A DNA stretch of 49,540 nt, taken from assembly GCA_013166835.1 (NCBI GenBank), contig JABLTI010000010.1, positions 1 to 49,540 of the forward strand. Reading direction: 5' to 3'. The notes under the pieces were generated by a model that was not told the origin of the DNA, searched no databases, and saw only the letters and a program-made list of their open reading frames with translations. Within the stretch, counting starts at the first letter, position 1. Each line of letters starts with the position of its first letter. The stretch is from Promethearchaeati archaeon. GTDB lineage: Archaea > Asgardarchaeota > Heimdallarchaeia > JABLTI01. This document shows, in pieces, positions 507 through 47,103 of this stretch. Both the position numbers and the translations under genes were made by a program.

Positions 507-3218
507 TTGCGTATAAGAGAAAGAATAATGGTGACTTTTATCGTTTTACTTATTGTCCCCCCCGTAGTAATGATCACTGTTTCAAGTGTTCGTATTAGCA
601 GGGTTTCACGGGATAATACAAACGATTCTTCTGATGCATTACTTACTGAAGAAAAAGAACATCTTTTAAGATTGTCTTCAGATGAGTCACAAAAAATCAA
701 TGAGCTGTTCGATCAAATCGTTGCAGAAGTCACGATGTTGGACAGTTATGCAGAGGATTTGTTCAATAACAAGATTCCGATAACTCCTTACCAATCATAT
801 TGGTGGGATAATGAATCCGAGTTTCTTGAAACAGGAAGAGTAATTCCTGGCCTTCACTACGAACCAGATTATGATTCTTTTATTTCATATGATAACAGCT
901 GTTATTATTTACCTCGAACTTATATTACCAATAATTTAAGTGGAGACCCATTTAACTGGGATACAGACTTACAGTATCTTCTTGACACATCCTCAAACTT
1001 AGACATTGCATTCAAAAACATGCATGAAGCAAATCCAAATTACGTTTGGATTTATATGGCTTTCACACATCCCTCTTATTCATTGTTCAGGAACTATCCA
1101 TTTGATAGTATGGCCTGGACACAGGATTTAGATGAAGATGATATAATAAATCCCCCAGAAGAGGATTGGGATCCCCGTGGTGAAGATTTCTATACAATTC
1201 CCGCGGCAATTAGTAATACTAGTTCAACTACAGCATTTATTGCTCCATATTTTGATCCAGTTGGGTTACTCATATCCGCCGGGAGACCAGTATATTTTGA
1301 CAATGGTACACTCATAGGAATTGTTAGTGTTGATATAACAGTAGCGACAATGCAAGAAAGCATTTTGAATTTAGACGTAAGCGAAAATGGATATGCTTTC
1401 TTAATTGACAGCGAAGGTTCATCGATAACTCATCCTGGATTAGTGGATGATTTCGTTCCTATTTTGGATTTAGAAATGGCTGATTCAACAGCTAGCGAAC
1501 AAGCTGCTTTTCAATTAATTATTAATGATATGAAGAGTGGTGGAAGCGGTCAAGAAGAGTTTACAAAGGACGAAGGAGACACATGGTATATTTCTTATGA
1601 TTCAATTGACGCTGCTGGTTATTCTCTAGCACTTGTTGTTCCTGAAGATGATATCCTTGCTCCAGTAATTCAATTACGTGAAGATATCATGGGCAGAAGT
1701 ACAAACAACATACTCATTTCAGTTGCTTTGCTAGTACTCGCTTTAGTACTCATTATATTTGTTTCAGTAAGCGTCTCAAGAGCAACAGTTGAACCAATTC
1801 AAGATTTCATAAACTTCTCAAAAAGAGTAGGGTCAGGAGATCTTTCGAGGGATCTAGATGAAGATGTTGCTATACCGAGAGAAATCATGGGACTGCATGA
1901 AGCGCTGGATGGATTACTGACGGCTTTACGGTTTGGGAATACGGATTACTATGAGGGAAATCTGGATTTGGCGTTCAATAACTACTTGAAAGCTCTGAAA
2001 CTGTTTGAGACAACCCAAGACCAAATGGGTATGGGCGTTTGCTTAAATAACATAGGCAATGTCTACAGGGAATGGGGCGATCTTGTCCAAGCAAGAGATT
2101 TCTATGCAAAAGCAATAGCTGTTGCTGAAAATCTTGATGACAAAGTAGGAAAGGCTTCTAGGTACAATAATTATGGACTTGTTCTTCTTGATAGTGGAGA
2201 ACTAGACGAAGCTCAGAAGTACATTGAACGAGCTCTCAAACTCAATGAGGAAATAAACAATACTCGAGGTCGAGTGTTATGTTTGAATAACCTTGGTTTA
2301 ATTCACTTTAAACTCGGGTCTGTTAAACTAGCCTTTGGTTATTATCAAGATGCAATGAAGCTTGCAAAATCAGAGGATTTTGTGAGAGGAGTTGCTCATA
2401 GTTTGCTTAACTTGGCTATGTTTTATCTTGAACAATTCGATGTTCATAGTGCGAAAACACACATGAATCAAGCTTTGGAAAGCGCCAGAACTGTGAATGA
2501 TGTTCTTCTTGAAGAAGAAATCCTTGAACGACTTAAACTTGTTGAGCGTGATCTTGGAGATGATGCCAGTCAAGCTGAAATCAAACAAGCTTTAGAAGTT
2601 ATTCGAGGAACAGCCACCCCACAAAAGAGCGTATTATACGTTTTAGATTACAGTGGTTCAATGAGTGGTTCCCGAAATAGAGCTTCAGTTCGTGGTTCGA
2701 TTGATTTGTTTAAGACTGCAATTAAGGATAAAGACACTGTAGGGATCATTACTTTCCATACAACTAGTCGTATGATTCTTCAACCTATTCCAGTAAGAAA
2801 TAATCGAACTAAAATTCAAGAAACCATTAAACGATTGACAAGACCAAATGGCAATACTGCCTTATGGGATGCCGTTGCAGATGCTATCGATTCTCTCGAA
2901 AACATTGGTGGCACTCAAAGATGGTTAGTTCTACTTACTGATGGTGAAGACAATTCTAGTCGACGAACAGCTAATGAGATTAATAAGAAGATTAGCAAAT
3001 TAAAATCCGCTTTGAATCTAGTCGTCATAAGTGTTGGTGATATCGGAACAGATGAGGCAATCCTCATGGAGCTATGTGATAGAACAAATGGAACCTTCAT
3101 AAAAATCACAGATTCTCGAAGTGTTCATAAAGAAATCGAAAAGGCCTTCAAAACTGTTGGTCAATTGATGAGTCAGGCTCAAGTCTCTGTAGAGGGGCTG
3201 GTCTTGGATGATATGTGA
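507..3218 (+). CDS. Membrane receptor: TM - extracellular dCache_1 - TM - HAMP - TPR repeats - vWA (MIDAS)
   Basis: TTG start after AGGAG. N-terminal TM; Cache motifs 'WIYMAF..FRNYP', 'WDPRGEDFY', 'APYFDPVG', 'GIVSVDI', 'GYAFLIDSEG..ITHP'; second TM; HAMP 'EPIQDF..VGSGDLS..EIMGL'; TPRs 'CLNNIGNVY', 'YNNYGLVL', 'LNNLGLIH'; vWA 'VLDYSGSMS..GNTALWD..LLTDGED'. Confidence 0.85.
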   Translation: MRIRERIMVTFIVLLIVPPVVMITVSSVRISRVSRDNTNDSSDALLTEEKEHLLRLSSDESQKINELFDQIVAEVTMLDSYAEDLFNNKIPITPYQSYWWDNESEFLETGRVIPGLHYEPDYDSFISYDNSCYYLPRTYITNNLSGDPFNWDTDLQYLLDTSSNLDIAFKNMHEANPNYVWIYMAFTHPSYSLFRNYPFDSMAWTQDLDEDDIINPPEEDWDPRGEDFYTIPAAISNTSSTTAFIAPYFDPVGLLISAGRPVYFDNGTLIGIVSVDITVATMQESILNLDVSENGYAFLIDSEGSSITHPGLVDDFVPILDLEMADSTASEQAAFQLIINDMKSGGSGQEEFTKDEGDTWYISYDSIDAAGYSLALVVPEDDILAPVIQLREDIMGRSTNNILISVALLVLALVLIIFVSVSVSRATVEPIQDFINFSKRVGSGDLSRDLDEDVAIPREIMGLHEALDGLLTALRFGNTDYYEGNLDLAFNNYLKALKLFETTQDQMGMGVCLNNIGNVYREWGDLVQARDFYAKAIAVAENLDDKVGKASRYNNYGLVLLDSGELDEAQKYIERALKLNEEINNTRGRVLCLNNLGLIHFKLGSVKLAFGYYQDAMKLAKSEDFVRGVAHSLLNLAMFYLEQFDVHSAKTHMNQALESARTVNDVLLEEEILERLKLVERDLGDDASQAEIKQALEVIRGTATPQKSVLYVLDYSGSMSGSRNRASVRGSIDLFKTAIKDKDTVGIITFHTTSRMILQPIPVRNNRTKIQETIKRLTRPNGNTALWDAVADAIDSLENIGGTQRWLVLLTDGEDNSSRRTANEINKKISKLKSALNLVVISVGDIGTDEAILMELCDRTNGTFIKITDSRSVHKEIEKAFKTVGQLMSQAQVSVEGLVLDDM

Positions 3219-3230
3219 GGTGATTACAAA

Positions 3231-4718
3231 ATGGCACTACGCGATTTTATTAGAAAAAGAAGTATCCGATTCAACATTATGGTTAGTTTTGTACTTCTCT
3301 CTTTAATCTTCATAGGTGGAATTGGTGGACTTTCATATCTACTCTTCCAAAGAGCAGGAGAGCAAACAATAGTGGACAGTCGAAATGCTCTTGTTGATCA
3401 AATCAAAGAAAATATTGACATCACTGCTGACAAGAACTCACAAATCATAAATGAAAAGCTCTCAAGTGCAGAAGCTATGGTTCAATATCAAGCATCTGAA
3501 TTAGAATATCTCTTCTCCGGGAATAACCGATACGGTGACCGGGATGTTTACTATGATTATGTCTTCGAATATAATCAATCATATGCGCCTACAGATTTGT
3601 ATAACGACATACCTTACGGTGTGAACCTTAGCTGGGATTACTCGAGTTATTACTTAGAAGGATCAAATTCAACACACTATCAACCAAAAGCAGGAATACA
3701 AAATATTACTCTCGAAACAGTAGCATCTATGGATTATGTCTTCCAATATATCCATGACAATGCTCCGGAATTCAGATGGCTGTATATAGCATTTGAATTG
3801 AAAGATGTTGATAATACAGACTTGTTCATCAATTATCCAGGAAGCATACTAATGGAAGATGACATCTTACGAAACAATCAGTCTGAATGGTATGAAGCTC
3901 ATACTGAAGATTGGTACATGGATGTTTATGATGGAAACGGCTCTATAGTCTTTACAGAACCCTATACAGACGAATTTGATGGTGTACCACTTATCACAAT
4001 TGGACGATTAGCTAAATTCGACAATGGAACTGATCTAGCTGTTATTTGTGGTGATATTTCCATCGATGACATGGTTGACAAAATCATCAATGTGCAAGTC
4101 TTAGATACAGGATATGCATCTTTAATCACATCTAGTGGATTGGTTGTTGCACATCCAGATCCATTATCTATACCCGATTTAGCAAATCCTGATTTCAAAC
4201 ATATCTCAGAGATTGAAAAGAACCTTGATAGTTCCTCTGCATTAAGCCTTGCTGATATAGACGAAATAACCTCTGGAGATTCTGGTATTCTTGAGTATAC
4301 TCGAGATGGCCAAGAACGATACTTAGCTTATCAACCAGTGGGCAAAGGTGATTACATTAGTATAATCATTGTTCCGGTTGAAGAAGCTCTAGAGGGTATT
4401 GAACCTGTAGAAGCTCGAATGAACGAGGCAATCAGAACTAACTTGAACACTATCTGGATAATTGTTGGTGCAAGTTTTGCAATTGGTATTACTGTAGGAT
4501 TAATCCTTACAGCATACATAACAAGACCTTTCACACATCTCATCAAAGTAGCTCAATCATTATCTACAAGACGTGCGCGGAAAGACATCATGGAAGGAAT
4601 CATGTTAAACATAGATCCAGAATTACTGCAAAGCGAAGACGAACTCGGTGAGCTGACGCGAGCTTTCAAAGGAATGATAGATTCCGTTCAACAAGCAGAG
4701 CGGGAGAAAGATGATTAA
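3231..4718 (+). CDS. Membrane receptor: TM - dCache_1 - TM - HAMP, no cytoplasmic output domain
   Basis: GGTGA RBS. Paralogous Cache motifs 'WLYIAF..FINYPG', 'AHTEDWY', 'TEPYTD', 'CGDI', 'GYASLITSSGLVVAHP'; HAMP 'ITRPFTHL..DELGELTRAFKGM' followed by a stop. Confidence 0.85.
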   Translation: MALRDFIRKRSIRFNIMVSFVLLSLIFIGGIGGLSYLLFQRAGEQTIVDSRNALVDQIKENIDITADKNSQIINEKLSSAEAMVQYQASELEYLFSGNNRYGDRDVYYDYVFEYNQSYAPTDLYNDIPYGVNLSWDYSSYYLEGSNSTHYQPKAGIQNITLETVASMDYVFQYIHDNAPEFRWLYIAFELKDVDNTDLFINYPGSILMEDDILRNNQSEWYEAHTEDWYMDVYDGNGSIVFTEPYTDEFDGVPLITIGRLAKFDNGTDLAVICGDISIDDMVDKIINVQVLDTGYASLITSSGLVVAHPDPLSIPDLANPDFKHISEIEKNLDSSSALSLADIDEITSGDSGILEYTRDGQERYLAYQPVGKGDYISIIIVPVEEALEGIEPVEARMNEAIRTNLNTIWIIVGASFAIGITVGLILTAYITRPFTHLIKVAQSLSTRRARKDIMEGIMLNIDPELLQSEDELGELTRAFKGMIDSVQQAEREKDD

Positions 4719-4756: not shown

Positions 4757-6553
4757 ATGAAATGGAAACTAGATGATAGTAAACTAGTATATGGCGTAGG
4801 TAGTAAAGATCTATACTATCTTGATATAAACAAAGAAGGAAAACTTGAACTTGTATTAGAAGGTCAAAGAATCAGTTTTGAGAAAATTATTGACACGTTT
4901 AAAGAAAAAACGAAATATGATGAAGCTTCCTTCGCAATTAGAATCCCCCAATTGATTTCATGTCAGATTAAGAAACTGATTTTAGCATTTGCTGAAGCTA
5001 GAGAGAAGTATAATTATCAAAGTAAATATTATCCAATTTACCCGATTAAAGTTAATCATTCTAAATTTATTATTGATACAGTTATCAAAACTCATCCTAC
5101 TTATGGATTTGAATCAGGAACGAAATCTGAATTCATACTTTTACTTCAAGCATTGAAAGATGAGAAGCATCGTTTGATTATGTGTAACGGTGCCAAGGAT
5201 CGAGAGTATTTGCAATCAATAAAAGAAGCAATTACTGATGGTTTTAAAGTTTGTATTTCGATTGAATCAGAACAAGAAATGCTAGATACTCTTGATGTTT
5301 TACCTCAAGAGAATTATCGGCTTGCTCTTAGAATAAAACCTTATGTGACTTTACATGGTCATTGGGGAGCTTCTAGTGGGAGGAATTCCAAATTTGGTTT
5401 AGCAATTGGTGAATTACATGATGTTATTGATGTTTTGAAGGAGAAGAAAGCAACTCATTTGCTAACTATGTTACATTCACATCCTGGTTCTCAAATTACA
5501 GATTTGGCAGGATTTGAAAGATTCGCTACTTTTGTTGCTCAATTTTACAAACTCCTCCATGAACGTGGATTCACAAATTTGAAGACAATCAATTTTGGCG
5601 GGGGTTTACCTATTGATTATGATAATCGCCTTGATGAAGATTTTATGCAAAAATATGCTGAAATTTTTGTCAAAGTGCTTTCAAAGAAATTACCTAAATT
5701 ACAGCCTACTATAATGACTGAATCTGGAAGAGCAATCACAGCTTTATCCACAATTATTATAGTAAAAACCATAGATAAATATTCAGCGTATCCCAAGACG
5801 TATTGGAATAAAACATTTCTTTCTCACTTTTACAAAGAAATAGAAGAATACCAAGATGTTAAATCAGCAAATGATGCTCTCAAGAAATGGACCTCTTGGG
5901 AAAAAAGGAAACCTCCACTGCTTTTTCTTGAAGAACTAAATGATTATGAGTTCGTTGCTCTTGAATTAAAGAGATTACTCCGTAAAAAATATTTTAGTTT
6001 TGATGATTTTGAAAAACATTTAGAGAAATCAGCAGCAAAAGCATTGTTGAAACCGGAATACTCTGTTCAAGGCAATTTTTCAGTTTTCAATTCTATAGGA
6101 GATCTTGTATTAGTCAAACAGTATTTTCCAGTTATTCCAATTAGTAGTCTACATGTGCAACCAGAAACAATTGTACGTTTATTTGATATTACATGTGATT
6201 CCGATGGAGAAGTAGCAATTTATCATCCACCAATTAGTGAGAAGAAACTAGCTACTGAGGATGATTATCAACTTACTTTTACAGAACCATTTGAACTTGG
6301 AGGATTTCCTGTTGGAGATTTAAAAGAACTAAAAGATAGTTATCTTATCATCCCTCTTGCTGGGGCTTACCAAGATATTGTTGAGTTTGATCACAACCTA
6401 CTTGGAGATCTACCAGATGTTTTAGTTGCTTTAGATGGAGCATGGTTAATTGAACTACTTAATGGAGCACAATCAATCAGTAGCATTCTAGCTGATGTTG
6501 GTTTTGATTGTGATGTTGATGATGATCCCTATTATGATAATGGTTCGAAGTGA
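4757..6553 (+). CDS. speA: Biosynthetic (bacterial-type, fold III PLP) arginine decarboxylase
   Basis: SpeA motifs in order: YPIKVN (PLP Lys), ESGTKSE, CNGAKD, SKFGL, HSHPGSQI, GGGLPIDYD, ESGRAITA, NFSVF, DITCDSDG, GAYQD. Confidence 0.85.
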   Translation: MKWKLDDSKLVYGVGSKDLYYLDINKEGKLELVLEGQRISFEKIIDTFKEKTKYDEASFAIRIPQLISCQIKKLILAFAEAREKYNYQSKYYPIYPIKVNHSKFIIDTVIKTHPTYGFESGTKSEFILLLQALKDEKHRLIMCNGAKDREYLQSIKEAITDGFKVCISIESEQEMLDTLDVLPQENYRLALRIKPYVTLHGHWGASSGRNSKFGLAIGELHDVIDVLKEKKATHLLTMLHSHPGSQITDLAGFERFATFVAQFYKLLHERGFTNLKTINFGGGLPIDYDNRLDEDFMQKYAEIFVKVLSKKLPKLQPTIMTESGRAITALSTIIIVKTIDKYSAYPKTYWNKTFLSHFYKEIEEYQDVKSANDALKKWTSWEKRKPPLLFLEELNDYEFVALELKRLLRKKYFSFDDFEKHLEKSAAKALLKPEYSVQGNFSVFNSIGDLVLVKQYFPVIPISSLHVQPETIVRLFDITCDSDGEVAIYHPPISEKKLATEDDYQLTFTEPFELGGFPVGDLKELKDSYLIIPLAGAYQDIVEFDHNLLGDLPDVLVALDGAWLIELLNGAQSISSILADVGFDCDVDDDPYYDNGSK

Positions 6554-18877: not shown

Positions 18878-19852
18878 TTGTTGGGTGCTGAAACAGAGAT
18901 GTCCGATGTAGAGTTTGCAATTGTTATTGAGAATTTAGTGAAGAAATATGATGACTTGATTGCTGTTAATGATGTTTCTTTTAAAATTAAAATGGGAGAA
19001 ATTTTTGCTTTCTTAGGACCTAATGGTGCGGGGAAAACTACGACTGTAGAAATCCTAGAAGGGATAAGGAAGAAAACAAGTGGGAAAGCATATGTTCTTG
19101 GCAAAGATATTGATAAGCGGAAGGAAATGGATAGTCTTAGAAAAATAATTGGTACACTACCTCAAGAATTTAGCACTCATGATAATCTAACTGTGACAGA
19201 AAATCTGAAATTTTGGAGTCGAATGTATCCAAAAAATTTACCGATTGAACAGCTTATAGCTCTTGTAAAATTAGAAGATAAAGCAAAAACTAGATGTAAA
19301 AATCTCTCCGGGGGATTAAAAAGACGTTTGGGAATAGCAATTTCCTTAGTTAATGATCCTGTTCTGGTCTTTTTAGATGAACCAACCACAGGTCTTGATC
19401 CTCGCGCTAGACGAGAAACCTGGGAAGTTATTGAGGATTTAAAGAAGCAAGGTAAAACAGTCTTTCTTACGACCCATTATATGGAAGAAGCACATGTATT
19501 GGCTGATACTGTAGCAATCATACACAAAGGAAAGATTATGGATATTGGCACTCCAACACAATTAATAGATAGACATGGTGGAGAAAACAAAATTGTTGTT
19601 CGTTGTAATGATCAGGAGACTCGAGACAAAATCCATGATTTATTGTTTACTTATGGTCCATTAGAGAATGAAGATGGAGATATTGTAATTTCTGCTAAAA
19701 AAGGCATCTTATCAAAGGTTGTTGACCTTCTAGATGAAAACAAAGTGAATTATACTGATATAGTTACACAGAGACCAACTTTAGAAGATGTGTTTCTTAG
19801 CCTCACTGGTGAGGTTCTTGTTGTAGACGAAAAAATTAGTGAGAATGCCTAA
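18878..19852 (+). CDS. ABC-2 type exporter ATP-binding subunit
   Basis: Walker A GPNGAGKTT, signature LSGG, Walker B VFLDEPTTGLD, H-loop TTHYMEEA; the likely start is ATG 18899. Confidence 0.95.
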   Translation: MLGAETEMSDVEFAIVIENLVKKYDDLIAVNDVSFKIKMGEIFAFLGPNGAGKTTTVEILEGIRKKTSGKAYVLGKDIDKRKEMDSLRKIIGTLPQEFSTHDNLTVTENLKFWSRMYPKNLPIEQLIALVKLEDKAKTRCKNLSGGLKRRLGIAISLVNDPVLVFLDEPTTGLDPRARRETWEVIEDLKKQGKTVFLTTHYMEEAHVLADTVAIIHKGKIMDIGTPTQLIDRHGGENKIVVRCNDQETRDKIHDLLFTYGPLENEDGDIVISAKKGILSKVVDLLDENKVNYTDIVTQRPTLEDVFLSLTGEVLVVDEKISENA

Positions 19853-19864
19853 GGAGAATAAGAA

Positions 19865-21070
19865 ATGAGTGAAGAAACATTTGGTAAAAGAATTATTCTA
19901 AGCACTCGTCGAATATGGGGTATTCTATCAACTACGGCTATGGATTGGACAAGATCTGGCCCTGCACTCTTTTTCACTTTCATTTATCCGATTGTTATGA
20001 TTCTATTATTTGGATACATCTTCGGTGCTGGAACTGATGATAGTTTGTATGCTTTGAATTATCTAAATGATGATGTCTACCAAATTGGCGATCAAGTTTA
20101 TTCACACAATCCTGCGAGTGTATTACTTGAGAATCTGGGATTAGATAATGAGACGTTAGGCAATGCGCTTAATCTTAGACTGGTAGAAGCTGAGTTTAAC
20201 AGTACAACACTCCCATCAGAGTGGATGAAATCAAATGATATCCCATATTTATTCTTTATACCATCTGGTTGGTCTGCAGCAGTCAACGAATCAAAAATTA
20301 ATGCGACAGCACTTGCAGCTAACATTGAATACTATTATGATCCTTCCCATGTAAGCTCATTTGAAGTGCAAAGCATACTTGGAAATGTTCTTCAAGAAAT
20401 GAATTTGCAAGAATTTGGCATACCAACTATGCTAGGTGTGGAAGTAACAACAACTCCAGAAAGAGAAGGCTTGGATTACATTGATTTTTATGTACCTGGA
20501 ATCATAATGGTTACTATTTCAACCTCAGGAATGATGGGATTAGTAAGCATATCAACTTCTGAAAGGTTATCTGGTTATACGTTTAAGTTGGCAGCTTCCC
20601 CAATTAAAAAATGGGAATGGGCAACAGGTCACTTGTTATGGCAAGCAATAATGGGAATTATTGTAGCTATTCTAACAGTTCTAACAGGTTGGATTGCTTT
20701 TGACTTCAATATGAAAACAATTCATCCTCTGATGATCCCAATATTGATTTTTGGTTCAATGACTTTTGGTGGTATTGCTTTAATTATAGCTCGGTTTGTA
20801 AAACGACCAGAAGCAGCAATGGCAGCCACTATGTCATACGTCTTTCCACAGATGTTTCTTTCAGGAGCAATATTTCCATTAGAATCTTTACCAAAGTATA
20901 TGCAGATAATTGCACAGACATTCCCATTGTATTATATTAGTGAAGCTTTAAGATCAACAATGCTTGAGTCAACCTTCAATAACGTCTGGTTGCCTTTTGG
21001 AATAACAATTGCTATGGGCGTTGTTTTCTTTGTAGTTGGTTCTATCATTACAGTTTGGAGAAAAGATTGA
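19865..21070 (+). CDS. ABC-2 type exporter permease
   Basis: N-terminal TM, large external loop, 'YIDFYVPGII', 'FLSGAIFPLESLP', 'PLYYISEALR'. Confidence 0.92.
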   Translation: MSEETFGKRIILSTRRIWGILSTTAMDWTRSGPALFFTFIYPIVMILLFGYIFGAGTDDSLYALNYLNDDVYQIGDQVYSHNPASVLLENLGLDNETLGNALNLRLVEAEFNSTTLPSEWMKSNDIPYLFFIPSGWSAAVNESKINATALAANIEYYYDPSHVSSFEVQSILGNVLQEMNLQEFGIPTMLGVEVTTTPEREGLDYIDFYVPGIIMVTISTSGMMGLVSISTSERLSGYTFKLAASPIKKWEWATGHLLWQAIMGIIVAILTVLTGWIAFDFNMKTIHPLMIPILIFGSMTFGGIALIIARFVKRPEAAMAATMSYVFPQMFLSGAIFPLESLPKYMQIIAQTFPLYYISEALRSTMLESTFNNVWLPFGITIAMGVVFFVVGSIITVWRKD

Positions 21071-21082
21071 GGAGGAAGACTT

Positions 21083-22327
21083 ATGGAAGAACCAAAGAAA
21101 AAACCACGAAAACAAAATGCTATTGCTCTAGAAATACGCTTATCATTTCGACGAATAGGAGCATATATTTCAGCAGCTTTAAGAGATTTTAGCAGATCAC
21201 CTTTAACAATATTCTTTACAGTTGCTTACCCACTCATTCTAATTTTGTTATTTGGAGCGATTTTTGGTGATGAAGGTGTTGTGGGAGCATCCTACAATCT
21301 TTATCTTCAAAGCGGAACTGATGAGGGATTTCAAATTTCTCCAACTGAACATCTAAATTTTACAGATGATTTCACTAATATTATCCAAGAAATAAAGAGA
21401 AATGACAGTGAGCTTCTCTTTCAAGTTCACAATATTCCACTTAAGGATGAAAATAGCAATACGATTAACGCGGGTCAATATCTTGAAGAAGTTGAAGGAT
21501 ATATTGCGTTAGTTATTCCAAGTAATTTTACTCAAGAATTATTGTTTAATCCTCCTACTAATTTAACAATAATAATTGATGAAAACTCACAACAAGCCGG
21601 CATAGCTTATGAGATTCTTAGTAGTGTTGTCTATCATTTCAATTTAGGAATTGCAGGTTATAATGAAACTAAGATTGGCATGAGTATAACAGATATTTAT
21701 TTGGAAGAACAAATTGAATACTTCGAATTCTTGATACCTGGTGTAATTGGGATAGCTATAATGAATAATGGAATAATGGGTACAATTAATCGTTATTCAT
21801 ATTTTGAACGGAAAGGATTCTTTAGAAAATTATCAACATCACCCATGAAAAAGAGAGATGTTGTTATTGGCGAAGCAAGTTGGATTTTCATTCAAGGATT
21901 AATTTCAATTATAATTATCTTACTTGTCGGTTGGCTTGCTTTCAAAATTGCTGATCGGGATTTCAGGTGGATTATTGATATTCTAGATTGGAAGATACTT
22001 CCAATAACCTTGTCTGCAGTTTTGAATTTTACTGGTTTAGGAATGATTGGAGCCAGACTAACTAAAACTGCTGGTGCAGCATCTGCAGCTGGGAACTTCC
22101 TTTCAATTCCAATGATGTTTCTCAGTGGGGCATTTTTCGAAGTAGCTCATATACCAGTAATTAATGTTATATCCAAAATGCTACCTCTAACCTATATTGT
22201 AGATGCATTACGTGCTTCATTGATTACAAACAATATCAATTTAGCTTGGATTAATATCGGAATTAGCTTTGCATTTGGTATTGTAATCTTCATTATAGGC
22301 ATCTTTGTTACGAAATTAAAAGAATAA
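21083..22327 (+). CDS. ABC-2 type exporter permease (second)
   Basis: 'YFEFLIPGVIG', 'MFLSGAFF', 'LPLTYIVDALR'. Confidence 0.92.
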   Translation: MEEPKKKPRKQNAIALEIRLSFRRIGAYISAALRDFSRSPLTIFFTVAYPLILILLFGAIFGDEGVVGASYNLYLQSGTDEGFQISPTEHLNFTDDFTNIIQEIKRNDSELLFQVHNIPLKDENSNTINAGQYLEEVEGYIALVIPSNFTQELLFNPPTNLTIIIDENSQQAGIAYEILSSVVYHFNLGIAGYNETKIGMSITDIYLEEQIEYFEFLIPGVIGIAIMNNGIMGTINRYSYFERKGFFRKLSTSPMKKRDVVIGEASWIFIQGLISIIIILLVGWLAFKIADRDFRWIIDILDWKILPITLSAVLNFTGLGMIGARLTKTAGAASAAGNFLSIPMMFLSGAFFEVAHIPVINVISKMLPLTYIVDALRASLITNNINLAWINIGISFAFGIVIFIIGIFVTKLKE

Positions 22328-22479: not shown

Positions 22480-22488
22480 TTTTATATT
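22480..22488 (+). promoter_or_regulatory. TATA-like box for the longin-GTPase-7TM cluster
   Basis: TTTTATATT about 55 nt upstream of ATG 22541. Confidence 0.4.
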
Positions 22489-22540
22489 ACGAAAGTAAGA
22501 ACATATTGAAATCGATTTTTATCAATGGTGGTAGGAAAAA

Positions 22541-23035
22541 ATGAAGCCGGTAAGTTTATGCTTAGTTCAAATGGGTGACAAGGGTCTTGAGTTAGTCAAG
22601 GCACATCCCAATGTATTACCAAAACAAGTTCTCAATGAAATCACTTACAAATCGATGCCAATGGGCGCTAAACCAGGCGAGTTCTCTTCTGCAACAGTAG
22701 GCGACCTATATTACTCAAGTTATGTTTTCTCTTTACCAAGAGAAGACTCTCGAGATAATATTGCAGCCATAATTGCAGTTTTTAATAACATGAAATACAA
22801 CATCGAAGGAATTCGCAAAGTATTTTCATTCATCATTAAAGAACTCGACACTAATAAACTCTTGAAAACTGATATTGTTGAAGAAATTATGCCAAACCTG
22901 TACAAAGGATTCGATAGTGGGCATATTAAAATCAAAATCAGTTCAATTGCAACTATAGACATTGACTTTGCAGAAAAAGAAGAACCAGAAGAAAAAGATT
23001 GTACAAATGATCTTGAAGACGATCTTTGGCGATAA
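22541..23035 (+). CDS. uDENN/AVL9-like longin-domain protein (putative small-GTPase regulator)
   Basis: Pattern 'SLCLVQMGDKGLELVKAHP..LNEITYKSMPMGAKPGEF..YYSSYVFSLP..RDNIAAIIAVF' follows the uDENN layout (beta-G-beta-P, helix ending in xxPxG, three strands, helix); recognised by eye. Confidence 0.5.
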   Translation: MKPVSLCLVQMGDKGLELVKAHPNVLPKQVLNEITYKSMPMGAKPGEFSSATVGDLYYSSYVFSLPREDSRDNIAAIIAVFNNMKYNIEGIRKVFSFIIKELDTNKLLKTDIVEEIMPNLYKGFDSGHIKIKISSIATIDIDFAEKEEPEEKDCTNDLEDDLWR

Positions 23036-23053
23036 CACAGGAGAATAATTAAC

Positions 23054-23590
23054 TTGTCATTCCTAAGAAATCTATTTAGACGACGAATGAGAGAAATTGA
23101 CATTACTGTTTGTGGTCTAGCAAATGCAGGTAAAACGACAATTGTAAAGTATTTAGAAACTGGTAGATTCGTAGAGACACAACCAACTATGGGAATCAAT
23201 CGTGGAGAGACGATCCAATTCGAAAAACTTGAAATTAATATCTTTGATTTGGGTGGACAGGAAGATTTTCAGGTTTTATGGCCTGAAGTAAATGAGAAAT
23301 CGGATGGAGTTGTTTTTGTTGTAGATAAAAATGATATTATGAATTTTAACACTGCAAAAGAGACATTTCATAATATTATTGACACTCAAATTAACAAAGA
23401 TGTAGTGGTTCTAATACTATTACATAAATGCGATGTTCTGAACGGAATGGAACGAAATCGCTTCATCAAAGAATTTGGCTTATTAGAATTGCCTTACAAA
23501 TGGGCTTGTTATGAGACATCTGCTAAAACTGGCGAAAATATCTTCGAAAGTTTCAGATGGTTTTTTGAACAATTAAAGGAAGAGGTGTAA
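23054..23590 (+). CDS. Arf-family (Arf/Sar-like) small GTPase
   Basis: TTG start after AGGAG; amphipathic N-helix MSFLRNLFRR; G1 GLANAGKT, G2 PTMG, G3 FDLGGQ, switch-II Trp (LW), G4 HKCD, G5 SAK. Confidence 0.92.
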   Translation: MSFLRNLFRRRMREIDITVCGLANAGKTTIVKYLETGRFVETQPTMGINRGETIQFEKLEINIFDLGGQEDFQVLWPEVNEKSDGVVFVVDKNDIMNFNTAKETFHNIIDTQINKDVVVLILLHKCDVLNGMERNRFIKEFGLLELPYKWACYETSAKTGENIFESFRWFFEQLKEEV

Positions 23591-23594
23591 AAAA

Positions 23595-24437
23595 ATGGTA
23601 GCACTAATACAACCCGGATTAACTTGGACCTATATAGTATTTTCATGGTTAACAACAGGTCTTACTATGGGACTTGTTATAGCATTATTCAATAACTTCT
23701 TACGTAAGAAAACAACTGGAACGCTAATTCTTTTTACAGCGTATTTCATCATAGGTGCAGCTGCAATTTTAGGTGCACTTGTTTATACATTACAAGCAGC
23801 TGATTTAAATGAGATTGTACCAAGATCATTGCAAACTATTACAACCTTAGCACCGCAAATAGGATTAGTTTTGATCTATATTTTTTCATGTAGACATATC
23901 TTAAAAGATAATGAAGTTGTTAAAGCACTAACCATTATGATCGTTTCATTCATCCTAGGCCTTGTTTTCAATATATACCTCTTTGGAATTCTTGAGATTA
24001 CAAGTCCTATAAATTCTGATTTCCTTTGGGCAATCTCAACAAATAATCCAACTGCAGATCTTGAAAACATCTCAGTAAGTATTTTAGCTGTCTTCTTAGT
24101 TGTAATACAAATTTACATAAATGCCCGAATTTTCATTAGAGCCTTTGTTTTATCAAGAAGAACTGACAAAGAAATCCGAAAAAGAGGTTTGCTTTTGATT
24201 GCCTGGGGTCTAGTTATATACTTACTAGGTGGATTAGTTATTTCATTAGAAATTGCTGTTCCTTGGGCGAATGCCGCGATTCCTTTAGTTTTCTGGATGC
24301 TCAGAAAAATAATGTTTCTTACATCATATGTACTCCTTTACCTTGGCTGGATTATGCCTGATTGGTTTAGACGGCGCATACGTGGTAAAACTTGGTTTGA
24401 AATGCGATACAAAGAAATTAGCAGATTTGTACAATAA
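23595..24437 (+). CDS. Seven-transmembrane protein with basic cytoplasmic loops and a helix-8-like tail
   Basis: Seven hydrophobic segments; basic loops RKKT, RHILK, SRRTDKEIRKRG; tail 'MPDWFRRRIRG'. Confidence 0.8.
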   Translation: MVALIQPGLTWTYIVFSWLTTGLTMGLVIALFNNFLRKKTTGTLILFTAYFIIGAAAILGALVYTLQAADLNEIVPRSLQTITTLAPQIGLVLIYIFSCRHILKDNEVVKALTIMIVSFILGLVFNIYLFGILEITSPINSDFLWAISTNNPTADLENISVSILAVFLVVIQIYINARIFIRAFVLSRRTDKEIRKRGLLLIAWGLVIYLLGGLVISLEIAVPWANAAIPLVFWMLRKIMFLTSYVLLYLGWIMPDWFRRRIRGKTWFEMRYKEISRFVQ

Positions 24438-24442
24438 AAAAT

Positions 24443-24497
24443 AGAATTCTCAGTTCTTTTTTAATCTGAGAATCTCTAGAATTTTTTTTTCTTTTCT
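24443..24497 (+). terminator. Hairpin plus T-tract after the 7TM gene
   Basis: ATTCTCAG..CTGAGAAT stem followed by TTTTTTTTTCTTTTCT. Confidence 0.6.
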
Positions 24498-45696: not shown

Positions 45697-47103
45697 CTAA
45701 GGTTCATTCTTTAATGGATGTCGAGTTGGTGTCTCAAAAAGATAGTCAAGATCAGGTCGATTCTCAATTGCTTTCCTAATTGCCATAACTGTTGCTTTTC
45801 GATTGTTTACAAAGACTCTGTTCCTAGAAACAGCTGTTGGGTGGACAAAAACAGAGGCAATAATAACCAAATCATTGACATACTTCTCAGGAATGAATCC
45901 ATCTTGCACACACGTTGTCACAGCTTTCGCTACACCAGCTTGTACTGGACCAAAAACCATAGATGCTTGTCTCAAGTTTCTAATGAAAACTTTGGGAACA
46001 AGTAGAGTATCTGGTTTCACTGCTTCGTTTGTTTCATGTAATGCTAAAAGCGGTTCATGCCCCTCTATTGTTGAGGGATCATCTTTTACAAGTGCAAGAG
46101 CTCTAGCAAATGCTGCACCAACTGGACCATCTTTTGGACCGATTAAAAGATCAACATGAGCCATTTCTGGCCGATCGCCACCAAAGAATCCTTCACCAAC
46201 AAGTAGTTTCTTTTGCAGAATAGTTTCAGCTGTGACATCAATTTGTCCGAATCTTTCCTCGATTTTCTTTGGATCTTCTGGTAAAGCAATAATTGGTTTT
46301 ACTTCGATCTTTCCTAATCTTTCTAGTTCAAGTCTTAATTCAGATCGTAACTCATGACTAATGCTTCCACCAATTTCAAGAGGTAATCGTGGTTTCCGAA
46401 CCTTTACTCCCATCATATTGAGTGCTTCTTTAGTTCCTGCTCCACCAGTTTTCACAATAATTCGAGTTATTTTGTGGATTTCCATCTCTGCCTTTCGTGC
46501 TTCATCTAGTTTTCCAGCTTCAACTAATTTCTTGATCTTCACCCAATAATCTCCAATGAAATTAGCAGATGCTAAGATACAACCATCAACACCAGCAGCA
46601 AGCGCTGGAAAAACAATTTCATCCCAGCCACAAAGAATCTTGAATTCAGGAGCTACAGGTTTTACTCTCTCGAGTATTTCCATTAAATAAGCCATATTTC
46701 CCCAAGAACATTTCATTCCGACGATATTCTCATGTTCTACTGCCAAGTCTTCTACTACCATTCTTGGGAGGACAACATCTGTGAGTGCAGGTAATTGATA
46801 TAAAAGAATTGGAAAATCAACTTTATCTGCGATTTCTGAATAATGTTTGAATAACCCTCGTTGTGTTGGTTTCATATAGTATGGAGTTACAATAAGTCCT
46901 GCATCAGCACCAACATCCATCGCATGTTTAGTCATTGCTATCGTTCGTTTTGTACCACTTGTTCCAGTTCCTGCCATAACATCTACTTTTCCATTAGCTT
47001 CTTCAACTGCGATTTCAATAATTTTCTTTTGTTCATCCCAGAATAATGATGAAAATTCACCAGTGGATCCAGCTGGAACTATTCCTCTAAATTTTTTTGC
47101 CAT
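45697..47103 (-). CDS. Fusion of DapA/NAL-family class I aldolase (N-term) and formaldehyde-activating enzyme Fae (C-term)
   Basis: GSTGE, 'VTPYY', 'LLYQLP', GMKCS Schiff-base Lys; Fae motifs 'VGEG..AHVDLLIGPKDGPVG.AF', 'GHEPLLA', 'KPDTLLVPKV', 'FGPVQAGVAKAV', 'VFVHP'. Confidence 0.88.
   Translation of the reverse strand: MAKKFRGIVPAGSTGEFSSLFWDEQKKIIEIAVEEANGKVDVMAGTGTSGTKRTIAMTKHAMDVGADAGLIVTPYYMKPTQRGLFKHYSEIADKVDFPILLYQLPALTDVVLPRMVVEDLAVEHENIVGMKCSWGNMAYLMEILERVKPVAPEFKILCGWDEIVFPALAAGVDGCILASANFIGDYWVKIKKLVEAGKLDEARKAEMEIHKITRIIVKTGGAGTKEALNMMGVKVRKPRLPLEIGGSISHELRSELRLELERLGKIEVKPIIALPEDPKKIEERFGQIDVTAETILQKKLLVGEGFFGGDRPEMAHVDLLIGPKDGPVGAAFARALALVKDDPSTIEGHEPLLALHETNEAVKPDTLLVPKVFIRNLRQASMVFGPVQAGVAKAVTTCVQDGFIPEKYVNDLVIIASVFVHPTAVSRNRVFVNNRKATVMAIRKAIENRPDLDYLFETPTRHPLKNEP

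Follow-up and report, generated by a model that had tools for sequence, protein, structure and literature searches.

One of the closest described counterparts of the locus analysed here, which encodes a longin, an Arf-type GTPase, and a seven-helix (7TM) membrane protein, is the C9orf72-SMCR8-WDR41 (CSW) complex. Its longin domain acts on an Arf-family GTPase by means of an arginine finger, and the SMCR8 longin is described as a solved ARF1 GAP that uses this residue (PMC8213707). A polytopic membrane protein completes the system: the 7TM transporter PQLC2 recruits CSW in human cells (PMC12290439). Our locus has the same parts list of membrane protein, longin, and Arf. It differs in that CSW is a longin-DENN heterodimer with a WD40 protein, whereas the cassette encodes a single 164-amino-acid longin and no DENN, and in that the cassette 7TM fold matches, albeit weakly, GPCR-type bundles rather than PQ-loop proteins. 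A second counterpart is GATOR1 (NPRL2-NPRL3-DEPDC5), which acts on RagA and furnishes the best structural neighbors of the cassette longin (TMq up to 0.73). Asgard archaea are already reported to have many NPRL2-like longins (Liu et al. preprint). Unlike GATOR1, the cassette has an Arf-type GTPase without a roadblock domain, and the NPRL2 C-terminal domain, NPRL3, and DEPDC5 are absent from it.

Two further comparisons concern receptors. The Arf family is the closest relative of G-alpha, and the cassette resembles a GPCR/G-alpha/RGS system in several respects: the 7TM protein is predicted to be N-out/C-in, its conserved cytoplasmic surface includes the ends of TM3 and TM7 and a short helix thereafter, its best fold matches, although weak, are mostly GPCRs, and a separate GAP-like protein is present. 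In contrast to that system, no GPCR sequence family is matched, the GTPase lacks a helical domain, and neither a beta nor a gamma subunit is present. Prokaryotic receptors of the 7TMR-DISM_7TM and HisKA_7TM types are hinted at by Atlas leads, by sub-threshold profile matches, and by a phage 7TM histidine kinase in BFVD; bacterial 7TM-cyclase proteins have been reported to resemble GPCRs (PMC10760455). In those modules the 7TM region is fused to an output domain, whereas the cassette 7TM protein stands alone (its longest relative has 398 residues) and is linked to a G protein by gene order.

Prokaryotic operons that combine a GTPase with its regulator include MglA-MglB. An Asgard operon of LAMTOR1-like, Rab-like, and DENN genes has been described (Liu et al.), and in the haloarchaeal ArvABC operon the partners of the Arf-like GTPase are DUF2073 and DUF2072 proteins (PMC10927574). 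As in the cassette, a small GTPase gene in these systems adjoins either the gene of its regulator from the roadblock/longin superfamily or genes of partner proteins; unlike the cassette, they have no dedicated 7TM protein, and their GTPases are MglA, Rab-like, and ArvA. SR-beta, a membrane Arf-family GTPase that binds the longin-like SRX domain of SR-alpha, has its own membrane anchor, unlike the cassette GTPase. The SR-beta/SRX chain 1nrj_A is among the fold matches of the cassette longin at an E value of 6.8e-2, far weaker than NPRL2.

Asgard Arf-family GTPases and NPRL2/FLCN-like longins are each known already. According to the sources cited here, Asgard GTPases are mostly not encoded beside regulators (PMC10933270; Liu et al.), and the GTPase partners of GAP-like Asgard longins have been posed as a question (Traffic 2025, PMC12290439). 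Our literature searches, some of them poorly targeted, found no description of a longin-GTPase-7TM triad. The cassette thus described joins one longin class to one Arf-type GTPase class in a concrete arrangement that has been duplicated repeatedly, and it adds a dedicated seven-helix membrane partner. Three questions arise, all directly testable with three small proteins: whether longin GAP activity is older than eukaryotes, by what means an archaeal Arf switch is anchored to the membrane, and whether a receptor-like 7TM protein could cooperate with a G protein when heterotrimeric G proteins did not yet exist. We propose that these three genes form a self-contained cassette, belonging to Asgard archaea of the Heimdallarchaeia type, that encodes a membrane-docked Arf-type GTPase switch with a longin regulator for which a GAP role is more probable than a GEF role. 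To this reading as a whole we assign a probability of about 0.5.

Organization of the locus

Within the window (the whole 49,540-nucleotide stretch of DNA analysed), three ORFs on one strand were read as previously described. They are separated by 18 nucleotides (genes 1 and 2) and 4 nucleotides (genes 2 and 3), confirming the co-oriented three-gene unit of the initial annotation, and no further copy of the cassette was found within the window.

22541-23035, + strand: gene 1, 164-amino-acid stand-alone longin-fold protein, NPRL2-like by fold (AF2 model, Foldseek)
23054-23590, + strand: gene 2, 178-amino-acid Arf-family small GTPase with a TTG start (Pfam Arf)
23595-24437, + strand: gene 3, 280-amino-acid 7TM membrane protein, predicted N-out/C-in (AF2 model, charge bias)

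Gene 2 encodes an Arf-family GTPase by sequence

Gene 2 matched Pfam Arf (PF00025) with an E value of 8.8e-37 and 126.7 bits (cut-off, 22.3) over profile positions 4 to 173 of 174, in line with the initial Arf assignment. The next-best Pfam family was Ras (E value, 3.7e-15); Gtr1_RagA scored 37.7 bits, above its cut-off of 22, and G-alpha reached a sub-threshold 30.9 bits. Among solved relatives, the best 60 of 96 chains with E values of 1e-10 or below were all Arf, Arl, or Arf-family proteins. The best solved relative in phmmer was eukaryotic Arf1 (E value, 3.2e-28), and the archaeal GerdArfR1 (8oun) was found at 5.4e-23. On these sequence grounds, gene 2 is an Arf-family GTPase.

The initial annotation had credited the protein with all five G boxes. 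Four of them are canonical and invariant: G1 (G21-T28), G2 (T45), G3 (D65-Q69), and G5 (S156-K158). The remaining one, G4, is a variant that reads H-K-C-D (residues 124 to 127) instead of N-K-x-D; its first residue is H in the window and in related loci L001 to L005 and N in L006 to L010. The catalytic Gln69 is kept, an intrinsic switch-I arginine is absent, and the 178-residue protein has no Rag-type C-terminal roadblock domain. All 11 aligned GTPases open with M-S-F and share an invariant F8 while their start codons differ (ATG, GTG, or TTG), which supports the TTG start of gene 2.

The same N-terminal stretch contains a putative membrane-binding element:

23057-23086, + strand: N-terminal amphipathic helix of gene 2, residues 2 to 11 (conservation, hydrophobic moment)

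M1, S2, F3, and F8 are invariant, L7 is at least 90% conserved, and the hydrophobic moment of the helix is 0.50, compared with a protein mean of 0.30 (standard deviation, 0.15). The pattern resembles the buried F3/F4/L7/I11 described for HodArfR1. The helix is probably the part of the GTPase that binds membrane.

Gene 1 is predicted to be a longin with GATOR1-like structural neighbors

No Pfam or NCBIfam family was found for gene 1, PADLOC likewise gave nothing usable, and a gene 1 profile searched against PDB sequences returned only chance-level rows (E values of 0.3 or above). The AF2 model (pLDDT 82.2, pTM 0.76) has the topology b-b-a-b-b-b-a-a, in which strands 5-12, 15-22, 48-53, 56-65, and 73-81 form a five-strand sheet accompanied by helices 28-37, 88-104, and 110-126. 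Two C-terminal strands follow, and residues 146 to 164 form a disordered acidic tail ending in an invariant W163. The best Foldseek match was 9o5a_H (E value, 2.3e-6; TMq, 0.73), and all 12 matches at E values of 1e-3 or below were GATOR1/SEAC chains, which we take, from chain length, to be NPRL2/Npr2 and NPRL3. Fold matches as a whole included NPRL2, NPRL3, Lst4, a Lokiarchaeal longin, Ykt6, and AP sigma and mu subunits. Together, the modeled topology and the longin-only top matches indicate that gene 1 has a longin fold, as initially suggested. The Atlas lead was a cluster carrying Pfam NPR2 in 19% of its members (score, 0.89); none of the 41 scanned members of the gene 1 family itself matched that Pfam family.

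The initial annotation had gone further, calling the protein uDENN/longin-like and inferring that it is the exchange factor of the GTPase. In that form the proposal found no support. With 164 residues and a fold that ends at residue 142, the protein has no room for a DENN core, and the central and downstream DENN modules are absent. No Pfam DENN match was obtained in gene 1 or its family members, and the DENN-type fold matches, DENND10 (E value, 3.4e-3) and DENND1A from the DENND1A-Rab35 GEF complex (1.2e-2), trail the GATOR1/SEAC chains. A search of longer proteins with the longin profile, which is weak evidence, found no fused longins.

One residue of the longin is a candidate catalytic arginine:

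22751-22753, + strand: codon of Arg71, in the loop immediately before strand 5

It is invariant in all 41 sequences of the alignment and is present in the 12 locus copies. Considering the GATOR1/SEAC fold matches, the lack of space for a DENN core, and this invariant arginine, we consider the longin no less likely to be a GAP than a GEF. The GAP reading draws in addition on the retained Gln69 of the GTPase and on the precedent of SMCR8 acting on ARF1.

Several observations count against it. GAP-type longins are associated with a GP motif that opens strand 2 or lies in the loop preceding it (PMC12290439). It is not kept in gene 1, where the corresponding position, placed by secondary structure only, reads G15-L16 (G12, G15, and L16 are at least 90% conserved). 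Known longin GAPs are described as acting as longin heterodimers (PMC8213707), which weighs against a GAP here since no second longin gene was found in the cassette or in the 44 flanking ORFs scanned with Pfam, a scan that could miss a longin without a family. Longins are also described as more often being GEF platforms (PMC12290439). The same points favor the view that the longin serves the Arf-type GTPase as an exchange factor or GEF platform and is recruited or gated by the 7TM protein: longin and uDENN domains are typical GEF modules (PMC12290439), and DENND10 and the DENND1A-Rab35 GEF complex are among the fold matches. It does not explain why the 12 best matches are all GATOR1/SEAC chains, well ahead of DENN, why the Atlas lead is NPR2 rather than DENN, or why a loop arginine is invariant in the partner of a GTPase that has the glutamine and lacks an arginine of its own. 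We consider an exchange factor possible, if rather unlikely, and retain the GAP as the preferred regulator.

Gene 3 is predicted to be a seven-helix protein with a conserved cytoplasmic face

The AF2 model of gene 3 (pLDDT 85.6, pTM 0.81) places TM helices at residues 2-38, 41-68, 74-103, 107-132, 162-189, 193-221, and 228-253, with a beta-hairpin in the outer TM4-TM5 loop and short helices (256-263 and 267-278) after TM7. The loops after TM1, TM3, and TM5 and the tail together hold 19 lysines and arginines and the other loops hold none, which argues for an N-out/C-in orientation. The seven TM segments and the topology first proposed from sequence are both upheld by the model and the charge counts.

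Conservation in the 7TM family is concentrated on the predicted cytoplasmic side: 44 of the 47 columns that are at least 90% conserved fall among its 145 residues, and 3 fall among the 135 outer residues (Fisher P = 3e-11). Entropy is 1.99 bits in the outer TM halves and 2.31 bits in the outer loops, compared with 1.41 and 0.87 bits inside, and the outer face is hypervariable between paralogous cassettes. Three conserved cytoplasmic segments stand out in the family alignment:

23889-23915, + strand: cytoplasmic end of TM3, residues 99 to 107 (R100, H101, I102, and D105 invariant)
24147-24191, + strand: basic TM5-TM6 loop, residues 185 to 199 (R197 and G198 invariant; R195, K196, and L199 at least 90% conserved)
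24339-24410, + strand: cytoplasmic end of TM7 and the next helix, residues 249 to 272 (Y249, G251, W252, P255, W257, R263, and W267 invariant)

All 50 PDB fold matches listed for gene 3 were GPCRs, at E values of 4.8e-3 to 3.5e-2 and TMq values of 0.33 to 0.57. Most of the 50 listed from BFVD were viral GPCRs or homologs; several rows were unnamed, and phage membrane proteins, a phage-encoded 7TM histidine kinase, and hemolysin III were also listed. Among the matches listed from either library, none reached an E value of 1e-3, and the resemblance of the modeled fold to GPCR-type bundles is a weak one. Sequence searches gave no family: none of 30 family members matched a Pfam family, no 7tm family appeared at an E value of 1 or below, and NCBIfam and PADLOC yielded nothing usable. 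The NCBIfam "putative transporter" MAB_1171c was matched at an E value of 3.2e-6 and 26.4 bits, below its cut-off of 100. A 7TM profile searched against 1.84 billion representatives of any length returned 103 relatives of 61 to 398 residues. Among the 36 distant relatives scanned, none was fused to a known domain, none matched a GPCR sequence family at an E value of 0.01 or below, and 3 had sub-threshold 7TMR-DISM_7TM matches (best, 24.6 bits; cut-off, 29). One of the closest Atlas clusters bears the automatic name "histidine kinase N-terminal 7TM region," and among clusters with a Pfam family the closest contains HisKA_7TM in 10% of its members (score, 0.88).

The restriction of 7TM conservation to the cytoplasmic face would also be expected if the protein were not a sensor and served as a passive anchor or a regulated target of the GTPase, with local membrane remodeling or vesicle formation as the outcome and an outer face that is simply unconstrained. 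Asgard Arf-family proteins are reported to bind membranes by their N-terminal helix (10.1101/2024.02.28.582541, PMC11914678), and haloarchaeal vesicle formation is reported to be driven by the ArvABC operon (PMC10927574). We judge this explanation unlikely: seven helices in a confident, conserved fold are more than a passive anchor calls for, such an anchor would hardly be expected to survive while the entire unit was duplicated again and again (up to four copies per genome), and the fold weakly resembles receptor-type 7TM bundles.

Two sensor readings appear quite improbable to us. In the first, the substrate state of a nutrient transceptor would control the longin GAP and an Arf/Rag-type GTPase, as in PQLC2 with C9orf72-SMCR8-WDR41 or SLC38A9 with Rag, GATOR1, and FLCN. 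It would accommodate the NPRL2-like fold of the longin, the Gtr1_RagA match of gene 2, the MAB_1171c match of gene 3, and the discussion of PQLC2 as a membrane protein that partners the CSW longin GAP (PMC12290439). The outer TM halves and loops are poorly conserved, however, and 3 conserved columns of 47 on the outer side are not what a conserved substrate path would lead one to expect. Among the 50 matches listed per library, several of them unnamed in BFVD, none bears the name of a PQ-loop, SWEET, or amino-acid transporter, and the roadblock domain of a Rag-type GTPase is missing. In the second, a GPCR-fold 7TM protein would control the nucleotide state of the Arf GTPase and the longin GAP would be its off-switch; eukaryotic GPCR-G-alpha coupling, the lysosomal nutrient sensors built on longin GAPs (GATOR1, FLCN, and CSW), or both would have a common origin with this module. 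The paralogous copies would then form a small receptor repertoire with differing outer faces. Against a receptor role, no sequence-level family backs it, and the GPCR fold matches have E values of 5e-3 or worse.

A proposed model for a membrane-docked Arf-type switch

In the preferred reading, that of a docked GTPase switch with a longin GAP, the 7TM protein lies in the cell membrane with its N terminus outside, as the model and the charge bias show. Its nearly invariant, strongly basic cytoplasmic face, formed by the loops that follow TM1 and TM5 and by the ends of TM3 and TM7, the latter together with the next helix, may be a docking surface for soluble partners, a role suggested by its conservation and, weakly, by three-chain folding. 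From the behavior of its family, the GTP-bound GTPase would bind the membrane through its conserved N-terminal amphipathic helix and meet the 7TM protein there. The NPRL2-like longin would set the nucleotide state, most likely by GTPase activation, in which the longin would contribute its invariant Arg71 and the GTPase, which has no arginine of its own, the catalytic glutamine. The hypervariable outer face would fit receptors with different inputs and fits an absence of constraint equally well. The 7TM protein may also sense a stimulus or couple to the GTPase; the one direct computational hint is a low score in predicted docking.

That score came from an ESMFold2 prediction of all three proteins together, in which the 7TM protein was the partner being scored. 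The value of 0.43 (runs, 0.42, 0.51, and 0.43) is weak support, in a score class that is more often wrong than right unless the pairing is likely beforehand. The runs agreed in at least 75% of contacts, with a partner pLDDT of at least 71. The best of three controls, among them one in which only the GTPase was replaced, scored 0.00, so the 7TM score depended on the GTPase. In the calibration, from which this job differs in its three chains and its own alignments, 58 of 80 solved complexes reached the pass mark, as did 2 of 110 mismatched pairs; among these passes, only 7 of the 80 solved complexes, and both mismatched pairs, scored 0.60 or under.

The cassette recurs in related genomes

A search with the longin profile identified 12 related loci in five MAGs, which carry 4, 3, 2, 2, and 1 copies. 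The order longin-GTPase-7TM on one strand was present in 11 of the 12, at 25 to 76% identity, so the gene order is conserved. Of the refuting outcomes named initially, the two open to computation, absence of a longin fold and an order not kept in relatives, both failed to appear. Gaps range from 13 to 69 nucleotides between the longin and GTPase genes and from -28 to +8 nucleotides between the GTPase and 7TM genes. In L011 the GTPase gene is broken, and in L012 the longin and 7TM genes have no GTPase between them, which shows that the unit can occur without a GTPase gene. Two locus-tag pairs, FK733_12305/12315 and ACFFDW_12500/12510, are each one gene apart. Flanking genes are unrelated between paralogous cassettes; scanning 44 of 65 flanking ORFs revealed no conserved fourth gene, and no G-beta or G-gamma gene was found near the cassette. 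Pairwise distances of the three proteins are strongly correlated across 11 complete triads (Mantel r = 0.948, 0.948, and 0.938, each with P = 1e-4), a correlation that is to be expected from linkage by itself and that does not prove contact. Overall, the longin, the Arf GTPase, the 7TM protein, and their conserved order stand as first described; the labels uDENN and exchange factor found no support in that form.

Four candidate expression signals surround the genes:

22480-22488, + strand: TATA-like TTTTATATT, the word named in the initial annotation and present in the sequence
22502-22514, + strand: AT-rich element, alternative promoter candidate, aligned with a TATTTA-type element of L001 to L003
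22527-22536, + strand: purine-rich, Shine-Dalgarno-like stretch just 5' of the gene 1 start (sequence reading)
24442-24490, + strand: hairpin followed by a T9 run, possible transcript end (folding energy; T9 by sequence reading)

Promoter and terminator scans gave signals at chance level. The TATA-like word lies upstream as claimed, but its count in the window is 5, with 4.33 expected, and a count of 5 was reached in 41 of 100 shuffles. In an alignment with the orthologous loci L001 to L003, the common AT-rich element corresponds to 22502-22514 and not to 22480-22488, making the former a putative promoter. Downstream, the T9 run exists (24482-24490), 3' of the hairpin, but the hairpin itself (24442-24478; -11.2 kcal/mol; z = -1.14) is no better than shuffled sequence, 22 of 200 shuffles folding equally well. 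Because these signals do not rise above chance, it is the short gaps and the conservation of gene order that carry the case for a single transcript, which had been thought probable. That the three genes are mere neighbors with no common function is already disfavored and hardly credible: it would suit the chance-level signals and the report that MK-D1 GTPase genes generally lie outside operons with roadblock/longin genes (Tran et al., PMC10933270), but not the very short gaps, the same order among unrelated flanks, or three proteins that diverge in step.

Two other assignments were rejected. Zero PADLOC matches disposed of a defense system, and the ABC-2 transporter upstream of the cassette, which among the 12 loci recurs in L002 only, was not accepted as a member of the unit. 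An LRR protein is encoded 3' of the cassette in the orthologous pair L004/L005 only, and an additional Ras/Arf-like GTPase is encoded upstream in L006 only.

Gene organization and flanking sequence

The ORF list agrees with the initial annotation in placing three co-oriented genes on one strand, separated by 18 nt (gene 1/gene 2) and 4 nt (gene 2/gene 3). The cassette and its neighbors are as follows:

18878-22327: ABC-2 transporter, upstream neighbor
22541-23035, plus strand: gene 1, longin-fold protein, ORF of 164 aa
23054-23590, plus strand: gene 2, Arf-family GTPase, ORF of 178 aa, TTG start
23595-24437, plus strand: gene 3, seven-transmembrane (7TM) protein, ORF of 280 aa
25154-26986, minus strand: PadR-family regulator and HAAS-domain membrane protein pair, downstream neighbor

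Between the transporter and gene 1 lie 213 nt, and a purine-rich, Shine-Dalgarno-like stretch can be read ahead of each of the three starts. The proposed TATA-like box is a word present at 22480-22488, yet it occurs at chance frequency (5 matches versus 4.33 expected), and an AT-rich element common to the window and three orthologous loci aligns at 22502-22514 instead. As for the proposed hairpin and T-tract, a run of nine T's does follow the hairpin, but the hairpin itself (24442-24478) is no stabler than shuffled sequences (z = -1.14). A scan for sigma-70 promoters and terminators gave background levels. The window has a G+C content of ~33%, and no tRNA genes were found in it. Elsewhere it encodes two adjacent dCache_1 proteins (507-4718), the first of which (903 aa) also has TPR repeats and a VWA domain, and a single 468-aa ORF (45697-47103, minus strand) in which DHDPS-family and formaldehyde-activating enzyme (Fae) domains occur together.

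Conservation of the cassette

Scanning a single genome for each species identified 12 related loci (L001 to L012) in 5 MAGs, with 4, 3, 2, 2, and 1 copies; this number is a minimum, since the scan was built on two peptide patterns that divergent copies may escape. Conservation of gene order had been named beforehand among the tests of the proposed signaling operon, and the order longin, GTPase, 7TM protein on one strand is kept in 11 of the 12 loci, with gaps of 13 to 69 nt and -28 to +8 nt. In one of these, L011, the GTPase gene is broken (5529-6066): the reading frame stops at 73 aa, the glycine of the P-loop is substituted, and the region around the catalytic Gln is disrupted, while the longin and 7TM genes are intact, which could reflect decay or an assembly error. 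At the exception, L012 (4992-6337), the 7TM gene comes 26 nt after the longin gene and no GTPase is encoded in between, suggesting a pair that persists alone or uses a GTPase encoded elsewhere.

Pairwise distances of the three proteins across the 11 complete triads are correlated (r = 0.94 to 0.95, p = 1e-4), showing that each cassette was copied and has diverged as a whole, with no shuffling of its members; such a correlation could arise from linkage alone and is therefore no proof of contact. The flanks of paralogous cassettes are unrelated to one another. The PadR/HAAS pair recurs downstream in L001 and L002 only, and the ABC transporter is common to L002 only. Directly 3' of the cassette and co-oriented with it, the orthologous pair L004 (7003-7605) and L005 (7118-7720) alone encodes a 200-aa leucine-rich-repeat protein, and just upstream of the L006 cassette lies a second, divergently oriented small GTPase gene (4180-4692, minus strand; Pfam Ras E 6.6e-16, Arf 2.8e-15).

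Labeled homologs of genes 1 and 3 carry archaeal organism labels only: 14 of 15 gene 1 matches are Asgard and one is labeled Bathyarchaeia, and all 10 gene 3 matches are Asgard. Hints of synteny come from two gene 1/gene 3 locus-tag pairs with one gene between them (FK733_12305/12315 and ACFFDW_12500/12510) and from 11 same-sized contigs present in both homolog lists. L007 and L012 (DATKZI010000037.1 and DATKZI010000014.1) belong to a MAG labeled Bathyarchaeia, all other carriers being labeled Asgard or Heimdallarchaeota; a passage of Vargova et al. notes taxonomic mislabeling of such records.

The separate parts of the triad are of known kinds. In the full texts searched, no description was found of the linked longin-GTPase-7TM triad (supplementary tables might list it) or, above all, of a 7TM protein dedicated to an archaeal small GTPase and longin.

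Gene 2 encodes an Arf-family GTPase

The Arf-like assignment is borne out by Pfam Arf (E 8.8e-37 across the whole profile), with Ras far behind (3.7e-15); Gtr1_RagA also scores above its cutoff (37.7 bits), and G-alpha falls below (30.9 bits). By sequence, the closest solved relatives are eukaryotic Arf1 (E 3.2e-28), compared with 5.4e-23 for the archaeal GerdArfR1 (8oun; Vargova et al.). M1, S2, F3, F8, the P-loop, T45, D65, G67, G68, Q69, K125, D127, S156, and A157 are invariant in 11 cassette GTPases. Of the five G boxes originally claimed, G4 (23423-23434) is a variant that splits by paralog group, being H-K-x-D in the window and L001 to L005 and the usual N-K-x-D in the more distant paralogs L006 to L010. 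H-K-x-D is also the G4 form of Rag GTPases and would be in keeping with an NPRL2-like partner for gene 2. The N terminus is amphipathic (hydrophobic moment 0.50), resembling the HodArfR1 helix, which is buried in the GDP-bound protein according to Vargova et al.

Gene 1 encodes an NPRL2-like longin

No sequence family was found for gene 1 in Pfam or NCBIfam. Its AF2 model (pLDDT 82.2, pTM 0.76; 41 homologs in the alignment) shows the b-b-a-b-b-b-a-a order of longins, beyond which come two additional strands and an acidic tail that is disordered. Topology and fold matches uphold a longin but not the uDENN identity that accompanied it. All 12 Foldseek matches in the PDB at E ≤ 1e-3 are to GATOR1 or its yeast form SEAC (best E 2.3e-6, TMq 0.73); from chain lengths, we take the matched chains to be NPRL2/Npr2 and NPRL3/Npr3. 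DENN chains rank behind these, the lower matches including FLCN-complex chains, Lst4, a Lokiarchaeal longin, and DENND10, with DENND1A only at 1.2e-2. An Atlas lead (score 0.89) points to a Promethearchaeota cluster with Pfam NPR2 in 19% of its members. That NPRL2-like longins are numerous in Asgard archaea has been reported (Liu et al., preprint).

The protein had been proposed as an exchange factor (GEF). With fold matches favoring GATOR1/SEAC longins, we consider a GTPase-activating (GAP) role through Arg71 the more likely. R71, which lies in the loop leading into strand 5, is among the invariant residues, as is W163 close to the C terminus. Heimdallarchaeial longins are described as having an arginine finger and a GP motif in common with eukaryotic GAP longins, and the same source asks whether their partners are ArfR or Rag GTPases (PMC12290439). 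The SMCR8 longin is described as an Arg-finger GAP for ARF1, acting as a longin pair (PMC8213707), whereas gene 1 is the single longin of its cassette, and a Pfam scan of 44 flanking ORFs found no second one. At the GP position gene 1 retains the glycine, but leucine replaces the proline. For these two reasons we file it as a longin-fold, NPRL2-like protein and withhold the status of proven GAP longin. The acidic tail (22976-23032), with its invariant Trp one residue short of the C terminus, looks like a short docking motif, which may have the 7TM protein's basic face as its partner.

Gene 3 encodes a 7TM protein conserved on its cytoplasmic side

The AF2 model of gene 3 (pLDDT 85.6, pTM 0.81; 30 homologs in the alignment) has the seven long helices expected from the initial annotation, a beta-hairpin between TM4 and TM5, and a pair of short helices at the C-terminal end. 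K+R residues number 19 in the loops after TM1, TM3, and TM5 plus the tail and 0 in the other loops, which upholds the N-out/C-in topology. Among 47 columns conserved at ≥90%, 44 belong to the cytoplasmic loops, to the tail, or to the inner half of a helix, the outer side accounting for the other 3 (Fisher p = 3e-11). They cluster after TM1, at the TM3 end (R100, H101, I102, and D105 invariant), in the basic TM5-TM6 loop, and at the TM7 end and next helix.

All 50 PDB fold matches listed are class A and C GPCRs, but they are weak (best E 4.8e-3, TMq 0.33 to 0.57; none at E ≤ 1e-3). The BFVD matches listed, likewise none at E ≤ 1e-3, are mostly viral GPCRs or homologs, the others being phage membrane proteins, a 7TM histidine kinase, and hemolysin III. 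A GPCR-like fold is already known in prokaryotic 7TM sensor modules (PMC10760455 and PMC13581589). Leads from gene 3 to prokaryotic 7TM receptor modules are subthreshold only. TM5 to TM7 (residues 155-269) give a subthreshold NCBIfam match to MAB_1171c "putative transporter" (E 3.2e-6, 26.4 bits versus a cutoff of 100). A profile search of 1.84 billion representatives returned 103 relatives at E ≤ 1e-3, of which 60 also pass 1e-10 and 36 pass 1e-30. Their lengths run from 61 to 398 aa, and gene 3 therefore belongs to a small family of stand-alone proteins.

A proposed membrane-docked switch

In the best-supported picture, the cassette encodes an Arf-type switch docked at the membrane. The 7TM protein would provide a conserved basic cytoplasmic platform, the GTPase would bind it at the membrane via its own N-terminal helix, and the longin would set the nucleotide state of the GTPase, with GAP chemistry the likelier means. 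The analysis shows the gene structure, the families and folds, the topology, the one-sided conservation, the kept gene order, and the co-divergence; binding, GAP chemistry, sensing, and output are inferred. The hypervariable outer face of the 7TM protein across paralogs fits a set of receptors sensing different inputs; lack of constraint fits it equally well.

One three-chain fold (longin, GTPase, and 7TM protein, the last as the scored partner) gave a score of 0.43 (runs 0.42, 0.51, and 0.43), graded as weak support, with at least 75% contact agreement and a partner pLDDT of at least 71. Calibration on 80 solved complexes and 110 mismatched pairs gave 58 and 2 passes, respectively, for docking; passes at 0.60 or under comprised only 7 of the 80 complexes and both mismatches, and the present job, with three chains and their own alignments, is unlike the calibration set. 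The best of three controls scored 0.00, including one that swapped the GTPase only and kept the 7TM protein and longin, a hint that the predicted docking of the 7TM protein may need the GTPase.
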